This document shows, piece after piece, positions 30,911 through 62,266 of a DNA stretch of 64,000 nt. Both the position numbers and the translations under genes were made by a program. The stretch comes from an uncultured Planctomycetota bacterium (lineage in GTDB: Bacteria; Planctomycetota; Planctomycetia; Isosphaerales; Isosphaeraceae). The stretch's first letter is position 1. The number at the start of each line of letters is the position of its first letter. The stretch spans positions 6,592,001-6,656,000 of the forward strand of contig CAVTTN010000002.1 in assembly GCA_963737655.1 (NCBI GenBank), written 5' to 3'. The notes beneath the pieces were generated by a model, which worked only from the letters and a program-made list of their open reading frames with translations, was not told where the DNA came from and did not search any database.

Positions 30911-31636
30911 ATGAGCCAGCCGACCGACGAGACCCACGACCCGAGCACCGCCCCCGGCGAGACTCCCGGCGGCCTCGGCCTGTCCAGCCCGTTCGAGATC
31001 GAGGAGCAGACGCCCGACGGAGGGCCGACGTCGCCTGCGGCCCCTCCGCCTGCGGCCCCCCCGGCGGCGCCCGAGCCCGACCCGGACGACGAGCCACCGC
31101 CGCAACTGGTCTGGTACGTGCTCAAGGTCCAGTCCAGTCGAGAGGATACGATCCGCGACGCCCTGGAGCGCCGGGTCAAGATCCAGGGCCTCCAGCGGTT
31201 CTTCGGCCGGATCGTGGTGCCCACCGAGAAGATCACCGAGATCCGCAATAACAAGAAGAAGGTCGTCGAGCGCAAGAGCTATCCCGGCTACATCATGGTC
31301 GAGATGGAACTCAACGAGAAGACCTGGTTCACGGTGAGGGAGACCCCCGGGGTCGGCGACTTCGTCGGGGCCCATGGCCAGCCGACGAAGATGACCCAGG
31401 CCGAGGTCGACCAGATGCTCGGCCAGCAGACGGCCGCCGAGACCGAATCGGCCCCGAAGGTGCGGATCGACGTCGAGCGGGGCGACCGCGTGAAGATCAA
31501 GGACGGCCCGTTCGAGAATTTCGAGGGGACCGTCGAGGAAGTCATCGAGCAGCGCGGCCTCGTGAAGGTCATGCTCATCATCTTCAACCGGCCCACGCCG
31601 GTGGACCTGGAATACTGGCAGGTGGAACGGATCTAA
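30911..31636 (+). CDS. nusG: Transcription termination/antitermination factor NusG with Pro/acidic N-terminal extension
   Basis: [29 protein letters not shown]. Confidence 0.96.
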
Positions 31637-31643
31637 GTTGCGC

Positions 31644-31743
31644 AGTGGGCAGTGGGCAGTGGGCAGTGGGCAGTGAAGACGAAGCGATCAAGCGGCCGCC
31701 ATTTCCGTCTTCACTGCCCACTGCCCACTGCCCACTGCCCACT
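31644..31743. repeat. Perfect 38-bp heptamer-armed inverted repeat
   Basis: (AGTGGGC)4AGTGAAGACG 31644-31681 / reverse complement 31706-31743. Confidence 0.9.
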
Positions 31744-31757
31744 CGCCGGAGGCGACG

Positions 31758-32183
31758 ATGGCGAAGGTGATGACGGCGAAGGTGAAGCTCCAGTGCCCGG
31801 GCGGCCAGGCCACGCCCGCGCCCCCGGTCGGCCCCGCGTTGGGCCAGCACGGGGTGAATATCGGCCAGTTCGTGATGCAGTTCAACGAGCGGACGAAGGA
31901 CATGAAGGGGACGACGATCCCCATCGAGATCACGATCTACAGCGATCGCTCCTTCGAGTTCATCACCAAGAGCCCGCCCGCGGCGGTCCTCCTGAAGCAG
32001 ACGGCCGGTATCGCCTCGGGCTCGGCCGAGCCCCACAAGACCAAGGTGGCGACGGTCACGGCCGAGCAGGTCCAGAAGATCGCCGAGACCAAGTTCCAGG
32101 ACCTCAACGCCCGGGACATGGAGCACGCCTGCCGGATCATCGCCGGGACCGCCCGGAGCATGGGCATCGACATCAAGGGGTGA
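31758..32183 (+). CDS. rplK: 50S ribosomal protein L11
   Basis: [27 protein letters not shown]. Confidence 0.98.
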
Positions 32184-32237
32184 ACCGGATGGCTTGGACC
32201 CTGATCTCTTGGATATCGCCCGCCACCGATCGGTGAC

Positions 32238-32309
32238 GGGCGGCGAGCTCAGTGGTCCGAGCAGGCTCCTTATCAGGGCCGGGTGAGGGTTCGATTCCCT
32301 CGCCGCCTA
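32238..32309 (+). tRNA. Atypical tRNA-Ile(TAT)-like cloverleaf
   Basis: Acceptor GGGCGGC/GCCGCCT + A73; D GCTC/GAGC; anticodon GGCTC-CTTATCA-GGGCC; T GAGGG-TTCGATT-CCCTC; non-canonical G8, C21, C37. Confidence 0.8.
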
Positions 32310-32407
32310 CTTCGAAGCGATCATCTCGCGCCGGCGCGACCGCCCGCCGGAACTCTCGCGAGGATTCCTCACATCGGCGGCAGCCCCCAACGAAGGGAGC
32401 GAACGGT

Positions 32408-33085
32408 TTGGCAGTCTATTCGAAGCGATTCCGGGCCCTGAAGGAGAAGGTCAAGCCCGACCCTCTCCCCCTGGCCGAGGCCGTCAAGCAGCTCAAGACC
32501 TTCGGGACGACGAAGTTCAACCAGACCGTGGAGGTCTCGACGAACCTCGGGATCGACCCGAAGCAGAGCGATCAGAACGTCCGCGGCTCGGTGGCGCTGC
32601 CCCACGGGATCGGCAAGGCGGTCCGGGTGGCGGTGTTCGCCCAGGGGGACAACGCCGAGAAGGCCCGGGCCGCCGGCGCGGACATCGTCGGCGGGGATGA
32701 CCTGGCCCAGAAGATCAAGGGCGGGTTCATGGATTTCGACGTGGCCCTGGCCACGCCGGACATGATGGGCGTCGTCGGCCCCCTGGGCCGCGTCCTGGGT
32801 CCCCGAGGCCTGATGCCCAGCCCCCGCTCGGGCACCGTGACCACCGACATCACCTCCGGCGTGAAGGAATTCAAGGCCGGCAAGATCGAGTTCCGGTCGG
32901 ACAAGGGCGGCAACGTCGCGGCGCCGGTCGGCAAGATCAACTTCAGCGAGGAGCAACTGGTCGAGAACATCCAGACGTTCCTCAACCACCTCCGCTCGGT
33001 CAAGCCGACGGCCGCCAAGGGCACGTACATCCGATCGATCACCATCTCGGCCACCATGAGCCCGGGCATCCGGGTGCTGGCCTAA
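32408..33085 (+). CDS. rplA: 50S ribosomal protein L1
   Basis: TTG start; [22 protein letters not shown]. Confidence 0.97.
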
Positions 33086-33094
33086 GGGAGGGCG

Positions 33095-33199
33095 GAGTGG
33101 GCGGTGGGCCGTGGGCAGTGGGCAGTTGAAGAGGATAGGGAGAGACCGGTCTTTGCTTTCGTCTTCAACTGCCCACTGCCCACGGCCCACCGCCCACTC
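33095..33199. repeat. Perfect 38-bp heptamer-armed inverted repeat with mirrored variants
   Basis: GAGTGGGCGGTGGGCCGTGGGCAGTGGGCAGTTGAAGA 33095-33132 / exact reverse complement 33162-33199. Confidence 0.9.
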
Positions 33200-33205
33200 T
33201 CAACG

Positions 33206-33760
33206 ATGAGCAAATACGTCAAAGAATTGATGATGGATCAGTTCAAGGCCGAGCTCAACGGCTCGCGGTCGGTGCTGATCCTGGATTTCAAGGGGCTGGA
33301 CGCGGTCTCGGAGAATAAGCTCCGCCTGGACCTGCGCAAGAAGAAGATCCACATGAGGGCGGTGAAGAACACGTTGGCCCGGCGGGTCTTCGCCGACGCG
33401 GGCATCCACGGCCTGGACGCGGTCCTCAGCGGCCCGAGCGTGGCCGTCTGGGGCGGAGACGGCGTGGCCGAGCTGGCCAAGGAGCTGTTCGACCAGGTCA
33501 AGAAGCTGAAGAAGCCGGCGATCAAGGGCGGCGCGGTCGATGGCGTGGTGATCGGCCCGGCCCAGGTCGAGGACATCACCAAGCTGCCGAGCCGCGAGGC
33601 CCTGATCGGCCGGGTGGTCAGCCTGGCCCTGGCGCCGGCGGCCCGCGTGGTGTCCCTGGCCAACGCCCCGGCCTCCGGCCTGCTGGGCCAGTTGAAAACG
33701 CTGGCCGAGCCGAAGGACGGCGAAGGCGGCGAGGCGGCCCCGGCCGCCGAAGGCGCCTGA
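33206..33760 (+). CDS. rplJ: 50S ribosomal protein L10
   Basis: VKNTLARR, LSGPS, KLPSREAL. Confidence 0.96.
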   Translation: MSKYVKELMMDQFKAELNGSRSVLILDFKGLDAVSENKLRLDLRKKKIHMRAVKNTLARRVFADAGIHGLDAVLSGPSVAVWGGDGVAELAKELFDQVKKLKKPAIKGGAVDGVVIGPAQVEDITKLPSREALIGRVVSLALAPAARVVSLANAPASGLLGQLKTLAEPKDGEGGEAAPAAEGA

Positions 33761-52737: not shown

Positions 52738-53670
52738 ATGTCCGTAGCCAGTCCGGCGTGGGCGGAGCCCCGGGGGATGACCCTGGCGGACCTCGCGGCC
52801 CTGGTCGTGGGGTGCGCGGGGGGGATGGCCACGCTCAAGGTCGCGGGCTACTTCCAGATCGCCTCATTCCCGGCCTCGGCCCGGCCGTTCCTGATCCTCG
52901 TCCAGGCCGGGATGATCGCGGGGGTCGGCCTGACCGCGGTGGCCCTGGCCCGGCGGTGGCGGTACGGGGGCACGGCCCGCCCGACGGAGTGGATGGCGAT
53001 CCTGGCCGCGGATTTCCTCCTCCAACGCCTCGCCCCCACCTTCGGCCGGTACGTCGCGGCGTGGGCCTCGCTCTCGGTTTGGGATTACGAGCCGCTGGCC
53101 TGGCGGGTGGCGGGGATGGCGACCCTGGCCGCGATCGTCGCGGTGGTCCTGGCGGGGATCCTCCGCCGGTGGTCCCCGGGCGCCGTGACGACCCTCCTCC
53201 TGGCCGCGGCCCCGGCCGCCCTCCTCTGGGGGACCGCCCCGGCGGTGTACAACTTCCATGAATCGCTGTTCGGGCCCGTGGGTCGCTGGGTCGAGGGCCT
53301 CGCCGGGGCCCAGCGGAAGGGCCTGGCGTCCGACGTGACCATGGCCCTGGGGCGGCTCCCCCAGGGGATCGTCTACGGCCTGCCGACGGTCGCCTCGCTC
53401 CTGACGATCCTCCGGGGGCGGAGCCGGTCGTGGGCCTGGTCGGACTGGGCCTCGGCCGCCACGGGCCTGCTCGTCTGGTCGGCGTGGGTCGGCACCACCC
53501 ATTCCTGGGGCATCCATTCGACGAACGAAGCGATCGTCTTCGCCGTCTACCTGGCGGTCGTCGGCGGCGTGACGCTCCTGATCGTCCTGCGTCTCGGCCC
53601 GGTCTGGAACCGCCTGTTCCATCCGGGCCAACCTGAGAAACGAACGTCACCAGCCCCGACCGAGGACTGA
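52738..53670 (+). CDS. Hypothetical multi-TM membrane protein
   Basis: EPRGMTLADL, RPTEW, RSWAWSDWASAATG shared with 50811 copy. Confidence 0.75.
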   Translation: MSVASPAWAEPRGMTLADLAALVVGCAGGMATLKVAGYFQIASFPASARPFLILVQAGMIAGVGLTAVALARRWRYGGTARPTEWMAILAADFLLQRLAPTFGRYVAAWASLSVWDYEPLAWRVAGMATLAAIVAVVLAGILRRWSPGAVTTLLLAAAPAALLWGTAPAVYNFHESLFGPVGRWVEGLAGAQRKGLASDVTMALGRLPQGIVYGLPTVASLLTILRGRSRSWAWSDWASAATGLLVWSAWVGTTHSWGIHSTNEAIVFAVYLAVVGGVTLLIVLRLGPVWNRLFHPGQPEKRTSPAPTED

Positions 53671-54949: not shown

Positions 54950-56131
54950 TCGCCGGCCCGTTTCCTCGGTGTTCCTTGAAGGTCTCGACCAATCGATCCG
55001 TGGCCGCCGTCCAGCGATAGTTGGCGGCGATCTCGCGGCCGGTCTCGGCCCTCCATCGGCGCTCCTCGGGGCGGTCGAGGAGGTTCCGGAGCGTCTGGGC
55101 GATCGCCTCCTCGCTCTCGGGGTCGAAATACCAGCCGGCGTCGCCCGCGACTTCGGGCAGGGCGGTCGAGTTGGCCAGGGCCACGGGGCAGCCCCGGGCC
55201 ATCGCCTCGACGGCGGGGATGCCGAAGCTCTCGCAGAGCGACGGGAAGACCAGGGCGGCGGCCTCCGAATAAATCGCGGCCAGGGAGCGGCCCTGGCGGT
55301 ATCCGGGCGTCTTGACGATCGCCTTCGGGCCGATCTTCGCGGCGGCCGTTCGGAGCGACTCCGCCTCGCTGTCCGAGCCGTCCCCGACGAGGACCACGGC
55401 GAGCGATCCGTCGCGGACCTCCGGCAATCGCCCGGCCGCCCCGAGGAGCTTCGCGAGGTTCTTCCTCGCCTGGAAGTTGGCGACCGAGAGCAGATAGGGC
55501 ATCTCCGGAGCGAGCCCGAGGTCGGTCCTCACGGCCTGGCGCTCGCGATCGGTCGGAGGCTCGAAGAAGAGGTCGTCGGCGCCGTTGGGGACGTGGGCGA
55601 CCTTGTCCCGGCACTCGGGGAACTCGTCCAGGAGCCGGTCGGTGTTGAACTTCGAGACCGAGAGGACCAGGGAGGCCATCGCGAAGGCCCGGGCGAGCTT
55701 TCGCTTGCGACGAGGCCCCCGAATCGTATGTCCTGGAGGACGTCGTGGCTGGTCACCGCCAGCTTCGCCTTCCTCGTGGGGACGGCGTACTCGGCCGGGC
55801 AATAGATCCATTCGGATTGGCCGGCCCAGAGGTCGATCGGCGGCCAGGAGACGAGCCTCCAGGCGCGGAGGGCGTTGCGGGTCGTCAACGGCAGCTCCCG
55901 GCGGGGCAGGGGGTCGAGCCCTTCCCAGAACGCCAGGCCGTCGGGCTGGGAGATCCGTCCGGAAACGGCCCGGAGCGCCACGTCGGGCCGGTTGGCGAGG
56001 TTGCGGAGCTGGGCCAGGGCGTGACGGGTCACTCCCGTGGGGCCTCGGCAGGCGTCCATGTCGTAGAAGAGGGCCACCCGGACCGCCCTCGGATCGCCCC
56101 CTGCCGCCATCGTCTCCGCCTCCTCGGTCAT
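54855..56131 (-). CDS. Glycosyltransferase family 4 (frameshift at ~55718, probably a homopolymer error)
   Basis: RKN, FPSLCESFGIPAVEAMARG; N-terminus in ORF 55529-56377 frame. Confidence 0.85.
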
Positions 56132-59680: not shown

Positions 59681-62266
59681 ATGCCTGTCGTCCACGACTC
59701 GAAGGGGCGGCGACGCGTGCGGCCGAGTGTCGAGGCCCTCGAATCGAGGAGACTCCTCGCGTCGTTCGTGGTCACGAACACGGCGGACACCGGCGATGGC
59801 TCCCTCCGGCAGGCGATCCTGGACGCCGACGCGAACCCGGGGCTCGATACCATCTCCTTCGACATCCCCGGCGGAGGCGTCCGGACGATCGCCCCGACGA
59901 CCCCTCTTCCCGACGTGACCGACCCGGCGGTCATCGACGGCACCACCGAGCCCGGATATTCCGGGACCCCTCGGATCGAGCTCGATGGCGGGAACATCTT
60001 CCTGGGCGGGCCCGAAGCCTCCGAGGACATCCCCGTCCCCAGCGTCAACGGCCTGACGCTCGCCGGGGGGGACAGCCTGGTCAAGGGGCTGGACATCAAC
60101 CGCTTCTCCGGCTACGGGATCGGCCTCTCGGGCGACGGCAACACGATCTCCGGCAATTTCCTCGGCACCGACCCGACCGGCGCCCTCGCCGAGGGCAACG
60201 GCCTGGGCGGTCTGTTCGCCGAAACCCTGAACAACCAGATCGGCGGCCCCGTCGCCTCCGATCGCAACGTGATCTCGGGCAACGACGGGTACGGGATCGT
60301 CCTGGCGTCGCAGGGGGGCATGCCTACCCACGACCAGGTCCAGGGGAATTTTATTGGGACCGACGCCACCGGCGTCAAAGACCTGGGCAACGCCTACGAC
60401 GGGATCAACATCGAATCCTCCGACAACTTGATCGGCGGCGAGTCGGCGGCCCTGGCCAACACGATCGCCTTCAACGGCCGGGTGGGCGTCCAGGTCGGCT
60501 ACTACAACATTCAAACAGGCGTGGACGGCAACGCGATCCTCGGCAATTCGATCTTCTCGGACGTCGGGCTCGGCATCGCCCTGGGATACCCGAGCCCGAT
60601 CCAGCAACCGCCGGTCGGGTCCGGCCCGAATCGGGGCATAAGTACCCCCCAACTGACCTCGGCCTATTCGGTCAACGGCGGGACGGCCGTCGAGGGCCTG
60701 TACCTGGGGACCCCGAACACGACGTATCGGATCGAGCTCTTCGCCGACACCGCGCCTGACCCCTCGGGCTACGGCCAGGGCCGGACGTTCCTCGGCGCGA
60801 CCGACGTGACCACCGACTCCTCGGGCCGGGCCGACGTCTTCGCGACCGTCCCCACCGGCTCCCTCGCCGGAGAATACCTGAGCGACACCGCGACCGACCC
60901 CCGGAACGACACCTCGGAGTTCGCCCCGACGCTCCCGATCCTCTCGGCGCCGACGGCCGACCTGTCGGCGAGCGAGGCGGGCTCCCCGATGACGATCCCG
61001 GCCGGCGGCGACATCGCCTACATCCTGTCCGCCGCGAGCGCCGGGCCGAACCGGGCCACGAACGTGACCCTGAGCGACGTCCTGCCGTCGGGGGTGACGT
61101 TCGTGTCGGCCAACCCGACCCAGGGCACCGCAACGTTCGCCAACGGGACGGTCACGGCGAACTTCGGCACGCTGGACAACGGACAGAGCGCCGGCCTGGT
61201 CCTGGTCGTCCGGCCCTCGCAGGTCCAGCCGATCACGAACACGGTGACGGTCCGGGCGGACCAGGCCGACCCGAATCCTGCGAACGACACCGCGACGGTG
61301 ACGACCACCACGCTGCCACCCCCTCCGGCGGACCTCTCCGTCCTGGTGACCGCGGCGCCTCCCGCCATTGCCCTCGGCCAGACGCTCACCTACTCCATCG
61401 CCGTGACGAATGATGGCCCGTCGCCGGCCTCCGGAGTGGTCGTCACCAACGTCCTGCCCGCCGGCTCCTCGGTGATCTCCTCCCAGAGCACGCAGGGGAG
61501 CCTCTCGACGGCCAACGGCACGATCACCGCGAGCCTGGGCCTCCTCGCGCCGGGCGCCTCGGCCCTGATCACCATCGTGGTGAAGCCGGGGGCCGAGGGG
61601 ACGGCCGTGGACTCGGCCACCGTCTCGGCCGACCAACCCGACAACAACCTCGCGAACAACACCTCGGTGCTGGCCTCGCCCGTGGCCGCCGGCCCGACGC
61701 CGGCGCCCGACACGACGGCGCCGACGGTCCTCGCCCAGAAGCTGACCCTCTCGGGCCGGGCGATCACGTCGATTGTTCTGACATATGACAAGGCGATGGC
61801 GGCGGCCACGGTCGGGAACCTGGCGAACTACACGATCCGGGATCTCGGCGCGAAGGGGACGACCTCGGCGACCGGGCCGAAGGTGCCCCTGGCCTCGGCG
61901 ACGTTCGACCCGGCGACGGAGACCGTCACCCTGGTGCCGAGGAAGCCGCTGGCGATCGGCCGGTTCTACGAGCTGATCCTCGACGGCCCGAGGACCCCCG
62001 GGATCACCGACGCCTCGGTAATCCCCCTGGACGGCGACCGCAACGGCCTGGCCGACGGCATCTATACCTCGCTCTTCGGCCGGGGGACGCCGACCCGCCC
62101 GAACTCGCTCCAGATCGGCGCGACGGTCCCCCAGCCTCCCCCGGGCTCCTCGACCACCACCACCAGGACCAGGAACAAGCTCGTCCACCACGACGAGTCC
62201 ACGACGAGGGTCTCCCCGGCCAGGGTCCACACCCCGAAGGCCCGGCATCCCCGGGCGACCGGCTGA
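59681..62266 (+). CDS. Planctomycete surface protein (beta-helix plus DUF11), copy 2
   Basis: [13 protein letters not shown]; co-linear paralog of 56593-59235. Confidence 0.85.

Follow-up and report, generated by a model that had tools for sequence, protein, structure and literature searches.

A tRNA-Ile(UAU) gene between rplK and rplA in Isosphaeraceae, and signs that the copy of one genome may be failing

The spacer between rplK and rplA in an uncultured bacterium of the Isosphaeraceae holds a genuine member of a vertically inherited family of tRNA-Ile(UAU) genes, which a minority of Isosphaeraceae carry at this site. On balance, the copy studied here is probably a redundant gene that has been freshly crippled or strongly weakened, the first step of its loss. 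A first-pass annotation of the DNA had described a cloverleaf with altered invariant positions here, and had proposed either a TilS-independent AUA decoder with a remodelled core or a tRNA mimic acting on the expression of L1. The cloverleaf itself stands, and what had been built upon it is upheld in part by the relatives and the remainder of the genome.

Coordinates are positions in the window, the whole 64,000-nt stretch of DNA that was analyzed, unless a contig or locus is named. The source assembly (G000) consists of three contigs totaling 7.6 Mb with zero runs of N; other G and L numbers denote genomes and loci of relatives.

The Spacer tRNA and Its Neighbors

The gene order at the locus is tRNA-Trp, a presumed secE, nusG, rplK, rplA and rplJ. 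The frames on either side of the tRNA are L11 and L1 according to Pfam (Table 1), and the element is indeed inserted between rplK and rplA as first described.

Table 1. Features of the rplK-rplA region, in window coordinates.
Feature	Position	Strand	Basis or remark
rplK (L11), upstream neighbor	31758..32183	+	PF03946 104.5 bits, PF00298 97.4 bits
Short motif TTGGATATCGCCCGCC	32209..32224	+	about 14-29 nt upstream of the tRNA; aligned flanks
tRNA-Ile(UAU) gene	32238..32309	+	ARAGORN; Rfam 48.0 bits; orthologues and covariation
G8 of the tRNA	32245
C21 of the tRNA	32258
Anticodon TAT	32271-32273
C37 of the tRNA	32274
Conserved rplA leader motifs	32331..32402	+	alignments of relatives; distinct from the tRNA
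Leader part CCGGCGCGACCGCCCGCCGG	32331-32350
Leader part GGCGGCAGC	32376-32384
Leader part GGGAGCG	32396-32402
rplA (L1), TTG start, downstream neighbor	32408..33085	+	PF00687 233.2 bits; tblastn

Direct reading and ARAGORN, which calls tRNA-Ile(tat) at 32238-32310, recover the cloverleaf exactly as claimed, with stems of 7/4/5/5 bp and two G-U pairs. The acceptor stem GGGCGGC/GCCGCCT comprises 7 bp including G1-U72, and is followed by the D stem GCTC/GAGC with the D loop AGTGGTCC. The anticodon stem GGCTC/GGGCC (5 bp, including U30-G40) carries the loop CTTATCA, and a variable loop of 4 nt (GGGT) leads to the T arm GAGGG-TTCGATT-CCCTC and the discriminator A73. All 21 stem pairs are intact, and no CCA is encoded.

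The three departures from near-invariant positions reported by the first-pass annotation, G8, C21 and C37, are all read in the sequence. As measured against a canonical elongator tRNA, the gene has the expected stems, the GG of the D loop, a T loop of the form TTCRANY and U33, but lacks the U8-A14 pair and a purine at position 37. The loop reads U36-C37-A38 in place of the 36-UAA-38 that permits t6A37 and that is found in 19 of the 21 family members aligned below.

The identity elements of E. coli tRNA-Ile are A73, C4:G69, U12:A23 and C29:G41. All four occur here, the three pairs just as had been claimed, and they are invariant or nearly so in the alignment of 21 sequences. The pairs are shared with the tRNA-Ile(GAU) of the source genome and absent from both of its tRNA(CAU) genes.

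A sensitive scan with the Rfam model RF00005 gave 48.0 bits with an E-value of 9.4e-9, against a gathering score of 29, while the default gathering scan missed the gene at 32238-32309 altogether. This is a warning for annotation, in that default covariance-model filters miss the spacer tRNA-Ile(UAU). The gene ranks 42nd by score of 44 tRNA matches in the genome. The two matches below it are a truncated copy of tRNA-Lys (33.2 bits) and an odd tRNA-like sequence of 88 nt (39.5 bits), and the spacer tRNA has the lowest covariance-model score of all full-length canonical tRNAs in the source genome.

A Vertically Inherited Family

A 73-nt BLAST query matched 28 of 101 family genomes (the source genome counted), and 15 of those matches are genes called tRNA-Ile(tat) by ARAGORN. 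It is flanked by L11 and L1 in the source genome and in nine other loci, L003-L011. A separate sweep covered 80 rplK loci of species-representative genomes, 65 with an Isosphaeraceae-like L11 and 15 as outgroup. The spacer tRNA turned up in 10 of the 65, while the 15 loci from more distant planctomycetes had none; eight of these ten holders duplicate L003-L011, which leaves L070 and L075 as additions. Four further copies, all between L11 and L1, came from a pattern scan of metagenome contigs. Besides the source genome, then, 11 species loci of Isosphaeraceae and 4 metagenome contigs have the tRNA in this spacer.

An alignment of 21 distinct sequences (16 spacer copies, two from Tundrisphaera and three from tRNA arrays) provides position-by-position conservation and a test of covariation. 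Pairing is maintained in 97.7% of stem cells, compared to 42-52% in controls with slid partners. Both sides have changed at 8 of the 21 stem pairs, and the covariation score was reached by 0 of 500 shuffles. The source tRNA is identical to each of L003, L004 and L005 at 68 of 72 positions (94%, or about four differences), whereas the spacer around it matches the same loci at only 26/54 to 32/61 positions upstream and about 65/98 downstream. The anticodon loop of the family, CTTATAA (U33, UAU, A37 and A38), is perfect in 15 of 16 spacer copies.

Conservation with covariation in relatives places the element far beyond chance, and a tRNA so much better conserved than its flanks, with covarying stems, argues for purifying selection on the gene. 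What purifying selection maintains in the spacer family is a cloverleaf whose anticodon loop is canonical, and it has acted for most of the time since the holder lineages split. The copy in the source genome belongs to this family by orthologous position, similarity and stem covariation, and the view of it as a tRNA-Ile(UAU)-type gene with selected stems is upheld.

Separate Histories of G8, C21, and C37

The three unusual positions do not share a history. C21 occurs in 8 of the 21 aligned sequences, all of which except the source copy are otherwise canonical. It is thus a tolerated trait of the lineage, which already accommodates a non-canonical 8-14-21 triple. G8 is confined to the source genome (1 of 21; 19 sequences have T8 and one C8), and across the tree it is seen only on a C21 background. 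Among 222 tRNAs parsed from the source genome and the fetched loci, U8-A14-A21 is present 140 times and G8-A14-C21 once.

C37 is found in two of the 21 sequences, the remaining 19 having A37, and 15 of the 16 spacer copies combine U8 or C8 with A37. The second C37 copy belongs to Tundrisphaera lichenicola P12, an independent complete genome, where it lies co-directionally between sufB and sufD (locus L012, 1501-1572, minus strand). The congeneric copy at L013, also between suf genes, has A37. A37->C must therefore have arisen twice, as L012 carries C37 while its sister copy keeps A37. Within the source genome a purine occupies position 37 in 42 of 44 tRNAs, and the spacer tRNA-Ile(UAU) is the only one with C37. 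The altered alleles also score lower: spacer orthologues with U8 and A37 reach 59.3-66.2 bits with RF00005, 11-18 bits above the source copy, and L013 scores 52.8 bits vs. 43.6 for L012.

The proposal of a selected, remodelled core therefore divides. Selection on the stems is borne out by the 97.7% pairing, but selection on the changed invariants is not, with relatives sharing C21 while G8 is private and C37 appears in two of 21 sequences.

AUA Decoding in the Source Genome

In E. coli, t6A37 is important for isoleucylation by IleRS, the UAU anticodon is a poor substrate of the Trp-type enzyme, and tRNA-Ile(UAU) misreads AUG on the ribosome (Taniguchi et al., 2013, PMC3575796). The motif 36-UAA-38 is completely conserved in about 3630 bacterial tRNAs that decode ANN codons (PMC13276492).

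The suggestion that the spacer tRNA provides a TilS-independent route to AUA runs counter to the gene content of the genome, in which both tilS and tRNA(CAU) were found. A tilS gene is recognized by TIGR02432 at 165.9 bits (cut-off 93.6), with the PP-loop family PF01171 matching the same ORF; its neighbors are not conserved housekeeping genes. Among 101 family genomes, 96 have the gene, as do all 41 of those of high quality. Two non-initiator tRNA(CAU) genes accompany it, at C2:1417550-1417623 and, with an intron, at C2:3573862-3574191 (L112:1478-1807).

ARAGORN found only one of the two. The second came from custom split-tRNA scans, which superseded a whole-genome run of ARAGORN in intron mode (195 calls, mostly spurious). 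A group I intron of about 257 nt, with 48.9 bits for RF00028 (cut-off 50), splits it immediately behind CAT. T. lichenicola, S. acidiphila and a congener have nearly the same exons, and the gene is matched in 96 of 101 family genomes, seemingly without the intron in G004. The tRNA of this intron-bearing gene is a candidate substrate of TilS, and we infer that one CAU tRNA serves that enzyme.

The IleRS of the source genome has the motif KCERCW, whose R-C-W aligns with R888-C889-W890 of S. aureus and puts Trp at the wobble-stacking site. The same Trp motif is found in four relatives, including one in which tilS was not detected (G032, see below). Features that set apart TilS-independent decoding of the Mycoplasma mobile type are missing: tilS is there, the wobble-stacking residue is Trp and neither Arg nor Lys, and the spacer tRNA has no A37.

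Demand for AUA decoding is very low. In 4253 GC3-filtered frames, a filter that drops low-GC3 genes and so under-counts ATA in foreign genes, ATA is the rarest sense codon (278 of 1,499,582 codons, or 0.45% of Ile codons), and in these frames ATG is 86 times more frequent. The two ATA occurrences pointed out earlier do lie in reading frames, that at 60638 (plus strand) within an open frame of 892 codons with GC3 of 0.91, and that at 55727-55729 (minus strand) within one of 299 codons.

A Probable First Step of Gene Loss

In the explanation we favor, the family would act as a minor decoder of a very rare codon. The spacer tRNA would probably be transcribed together with the ribosomal protein genes or beside them, RNase P and 3' processing would free it from the transcript, and its function would be redundant with the standard route through TilS and tRNA(CAU). 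The IleRS of the host is moreover of the Trp type, for which UAU anticodons are poor substrates in E. coli. Repeated loss in the family would be explained by redundancy, by the very small number of codons to be read and by the danger that AUG is misread.

Against this background, U8->G and A37->C would be recent substitutions private to the source allele. Both fall at near-invariant positions outside the stems. With G8 the U8-A14 tertiary pair would be gone. C37 would destroy the 36-UAA-38 determinant of t6A37, a modification that matters for charging by IleRS and for pairing with A-U-rich codons. Private changes at just these determinants make the copy most likely crippled or strongly weakened, and not redesigned. 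Intact stems and some four differences from the nearest relatives have no statistical power to separate early decay from tolerated change, and the recurrence of A37->C hints at something beyond random decay.

The copy resembles decaying redundant tRNA genes in being a dispensable isoacceptor with private changes at universally conserved positions, the lowest score among canonical tRNAs and orthologues that have been lost repeatedly. It differs from tRNA pseudogenes in having no broken stem and 94% identity to functional-looking orthologues; as a pseudogene it would have to be very young. It may be that the first step of a gene loss is seen here, as part of a family-wide series of canonical copy, hit copy and empty spacer.

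Alternative Readings

Could the same changes have been selected for? The gene might still decode AUA, with a core (G8 with C21) and a loop (C37) that selection has remodelled; for instance, a tRNA without t6A that binds more weakly might read AUA and misread AUG less. We regard this as unlikely, while acknowledging that the stems are intact, that the isoleucine identity pairs are kept and that C21 in eight copies implies a triple that was flexible already. A37->C also recurs in T. lichenicola P12, another genome with tilS and an intron-bearing tRNA(CAU), and tRNA arrays in the family hold alternative 8-14-21 combinations (G-G-C 9, C-C-G 7 and A-U-A 5 of the 222 tRNAs). These arrays, however, change position 14 together with position 8, whereas the source copy keeps A14 and its combination is unique among the 222. 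C37 would moreover abolish a motif that is completely conserved in bacterial ANN-decoding tRNAs (PMC13276492). The deficit in Rfam score and the presence of tilS and tRNA(CAU), which render the function dispensable, weigh in the same direction.

The recurrence of A37->C lends itself to a more specific conjecture, which we hold to be doubtful. The change would be repeatedly selected in intra-operonic tRNA-Ile(UAU) genes of tilS-positive Isosphaeraceae, giving a tRNA without t6A that would be either a weakly binding AUA decoder, curbing misincorporation of isoleucine at the 86-fold commoner AUG, or non-decoding punctuation, cut by RNase P and RNase Z to uncouple the cistrons.

It is slightly less probable still that the cloverleaf serves mainly as a processing or regulatory signal, either as a site where RNase P and RNase Z cut the rplK and rplA messages apart or as a mimic of tRNA to which L1 responds. 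The shape would then be maintained, and the decoding positions could change freely. The family is co-directional with its neighbors in two operon settings, rplK-tRNA-rplA and sufB-tRNA-sufD of Tundrisphaera, and both C37 copies are intra-operonic. A promoter and terminator scan of 31600-33250, which is uninformative for planctomycete promoters, returned zero sites around the tRNA and no sigma-70 consensus. Yet a perfect CTTATAA in 15 of 16 spacer copies is not expected if shape alone mattered. In addition, 70 of the 80 related loci, among them the sister locus L034, have no tRNA in the spacer, implying that expression of L1 is independent of it. Presence of the tRNA is thus not linked to rplA across relatives, and the idea of an L1 regulator becomes unlikely, all the more as a separate conserved leader, which precedes rplA with or without a tRNA, is the better candidate for L1 control.

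Least probable of all is that G8, C37 or both are assembly or base-calling errors in an ordinary U8/A37 tRNA-Ile(UAU) gene: both changes are private and at positions invariant in the nearest relatives, and the best public sequencing run contains 0.10 of the sampled words (contigs from public runs gave the rplK and rplA coding parts of relatives and next to nothing over the tRNA), but two substitution errors 29 nt apart would be unusual in an N-free assembly of 7.6 Mb in three contigs, and the independent complete genome of T. lichenicola P12 demonstrates that alleles with A37->C exist in nature.

Scattered Distribution and Probable Repeated Loss

Two outcomes had been named by the first-pass annotation as speaking against its own reading. 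Absence from relatives is what the 70 empty spacers among 80 loci display, while stem-breaking decay of the remaining copies is not seen.

A quick maximum-likelihood tree, built by a brief search from the three short proteins NusG, L11 and L1, covered 68 of 81 loci; the other 13 were dropped as one protein was short or missing. On this tree the ten holders require nine changes, at least five of which are forced by well-supported branches, and they are no more clustered than under shuffled labels (198 of 500). Locus L034, the sister of the holder L033, groups with the source genome (support 98 and 99), and its spacer, of about the same length, contains nothing that resembles a tRNA. At a blastn E-value of 1e-3, no tRNA remnants were detected in the spacers of L032, L034, L036, L044, L054, L066, L068, L071 or L105. 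As the position and sequence of the spacer tRNA are orthologous among holders, their scatter is most simply read as presence in the ancestor followed by repeated loss.

The opposite outcome may be represented by G032 (13.7 Mb in five contigs; 85% complete; loci L010, L167 and L172). This genome has a canonical spacer tRNA-Ile(UAU) scoring 63.2 bits and an IleRS of the Trp type. Within its 85% complete assembly, neither the family model nor the TilS domain of the source genome matched a tilS gene, and the intron-bearing tRNA(CAU) has no counterpart, the sole match being the T arm of a tRNA-Arg. A single incomplete genome, G032 is a possible lead for a completed natural switch to decoding AUA with UAU alone. 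Since it seems to rely on the spacer tRNA, the argument from Trp to poor charging of UAU is weak within this family.

Relation to Known Systems

That Planctomycetes can have both tRNA-Ile(UAU) and tilS has been published before. In the paper by Taniguchi et al. (2013, PMC3575796), the bacteria with both genes in Supplementary Table S1 include Rhodopirellula baltica SH1 and Planctomyces limnophilus DSM 3776, and the authors read such coexistence as redundant AUA decoding or a transition state. The source genome is another tilS-positive planctomycete with a UAU isoleucine tRNA, and the Trp of its IleRS at the wobble-stacking site is shared with Cyanothece and Ferrimonas (PMC3575796). It belongs to another family, the Isosphaeraceae, in which the tRNA has a fixed site between rplK and rplA, and the G8 and C37 of its copy are not described in that paper.

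The characterized TilS-independent decoder, tRNA-Ile2(UAU) of M. mobile, shares the UAU anticodon and the AUA target. M. mobile, however, lacks tilS and has t6A37 in its tRNA and Arg865 in its IleRS (PMC3575796); here tilS is present, C37 makes t6A impossible and the IleRS has Trp. A limited full-text literature search returned no relevant account of tRNA-Ile(UAU) in Isosphaeraceae or of any tRNA located between rplK and rplA.

Adding the Isosphaeraceae to the planctomycetes that keep a UAU isoleucine tRNA beside TilS is modest on its own. Together with G032, the family becomes a useful natural system for the transition-state model of AUA decoding of Taniguchi et al. Several by-products may be worth more, namely the intron-bearing tRNAs, the odd tRNA arrays, the rplA leader and the possible loss of tilS.

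Leader and Hairpins Around rplK and rplA

Related forms of the short upstream motif, TTGATATCCGCCCGTC, precede the tRNA in the aligned flanks of relatives, and the TTGGATATCGCCCGCC type may be a promoter or processing signal. Downstream, the motifs of the rplA leader are retained by relatives whether or not the spacer holds a tRNA. The exact core GCGACCGCCCG occurs in 54 of 77 rplA leaders and in none of those from distant planctomycetes. It forms a hairpin loop able to pair with the downstream GGCGGCAGC, and a hairpin containing GGAG follows. An Rfam scan of 32331-32402 gave no match, and by eye no clear mimicry was found between the leader and the L1 stalk of the 23S rRNA of the source genome (located with RF02541). 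The leader is a candidate L1 autoregulatory element of Isosphaeraceae.

Long near-perfect hairpins with tandem GTGGGCA/GGGCAGT heptamers lie after nusG (31644-31743) and after rplA (33095-33199). They draw spurious matches to many microRNA models at 40-58 bits, under the cut-offs of those models, and are possibly terminators or a REP-like repeat family.

Further Observations on tRNA Genes

Neither an initiator-like tRNA nor a counterpart of the initiator-like genes of T. lichenicola was found in the source assembly, and a search for the motif GGGYTCATAACCC retrieved no tRNA in the source genome or relatives; the initiator-like tRNAs of the family carry TGGCTCATAACCA arms. Those of T. lichenicola have a U1xU72 mismatch or U1-A72, a GAGC/GCTC D stem and a GGCTCATAACC anticodon arm, and one is located on a 181-kb second contig. 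An initiator-like paralogue in T. lichenicola P12 (L163) has the anticodon loop CTAATCC and is apparently a degenerate copy.

Nor were tRNA-Val(GAC) and tRNA-Ser(CGA) found in the assembly, although three rRNA operons are present. Either the assembly has gaps or the missing genes are unusual. An assembly without an initiator-type tRNA makes for an incomplete census. An intact tRNA-Lys(UUU) was not found in it. A tRNA-Lys(UUU) at C2:3626925-3627295 has an insert of about 298 nt in its anticodon loop, with no RF00028 match at an E-value of 0.01. Through their introns, two essential-looking tRNAs of the source genome evade standard tRNA finders.

The odd 88-nt tRNA-like sequence lies at C2:52382-52469 and has an encoded CCA, a long anticodon arm and a pyrimidine at position 37; ARAGORN calls it Leu(aag), and Rfam gives it 39.5 bits. 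An ARAGORN call of tRNA-Ala(ggc) at 53089-53177 has no Rfam support and was set aside as what looks like a GC-rich false positive. The truncated tRNA-Lys(CUU) copy at C2:1543087-1543157 and a 3' copy of tRNA-Ser(UGA) near C2:4658943 look like attachment-site duplications of integrated elements.

Finally, many relatives have dense arrays of 10-20 tRNA genes, at L014, L015, L017, L018, L021-L027, L030 and L031. Position 8 of their tRNAs is often other than U, and to the three non-canonical 8-14-21 combinations given above they add A-A-G (9 of 222). In three arrays tRNA-Ile(UAU) stands beside Lys(UUU) and Ile(GAU).
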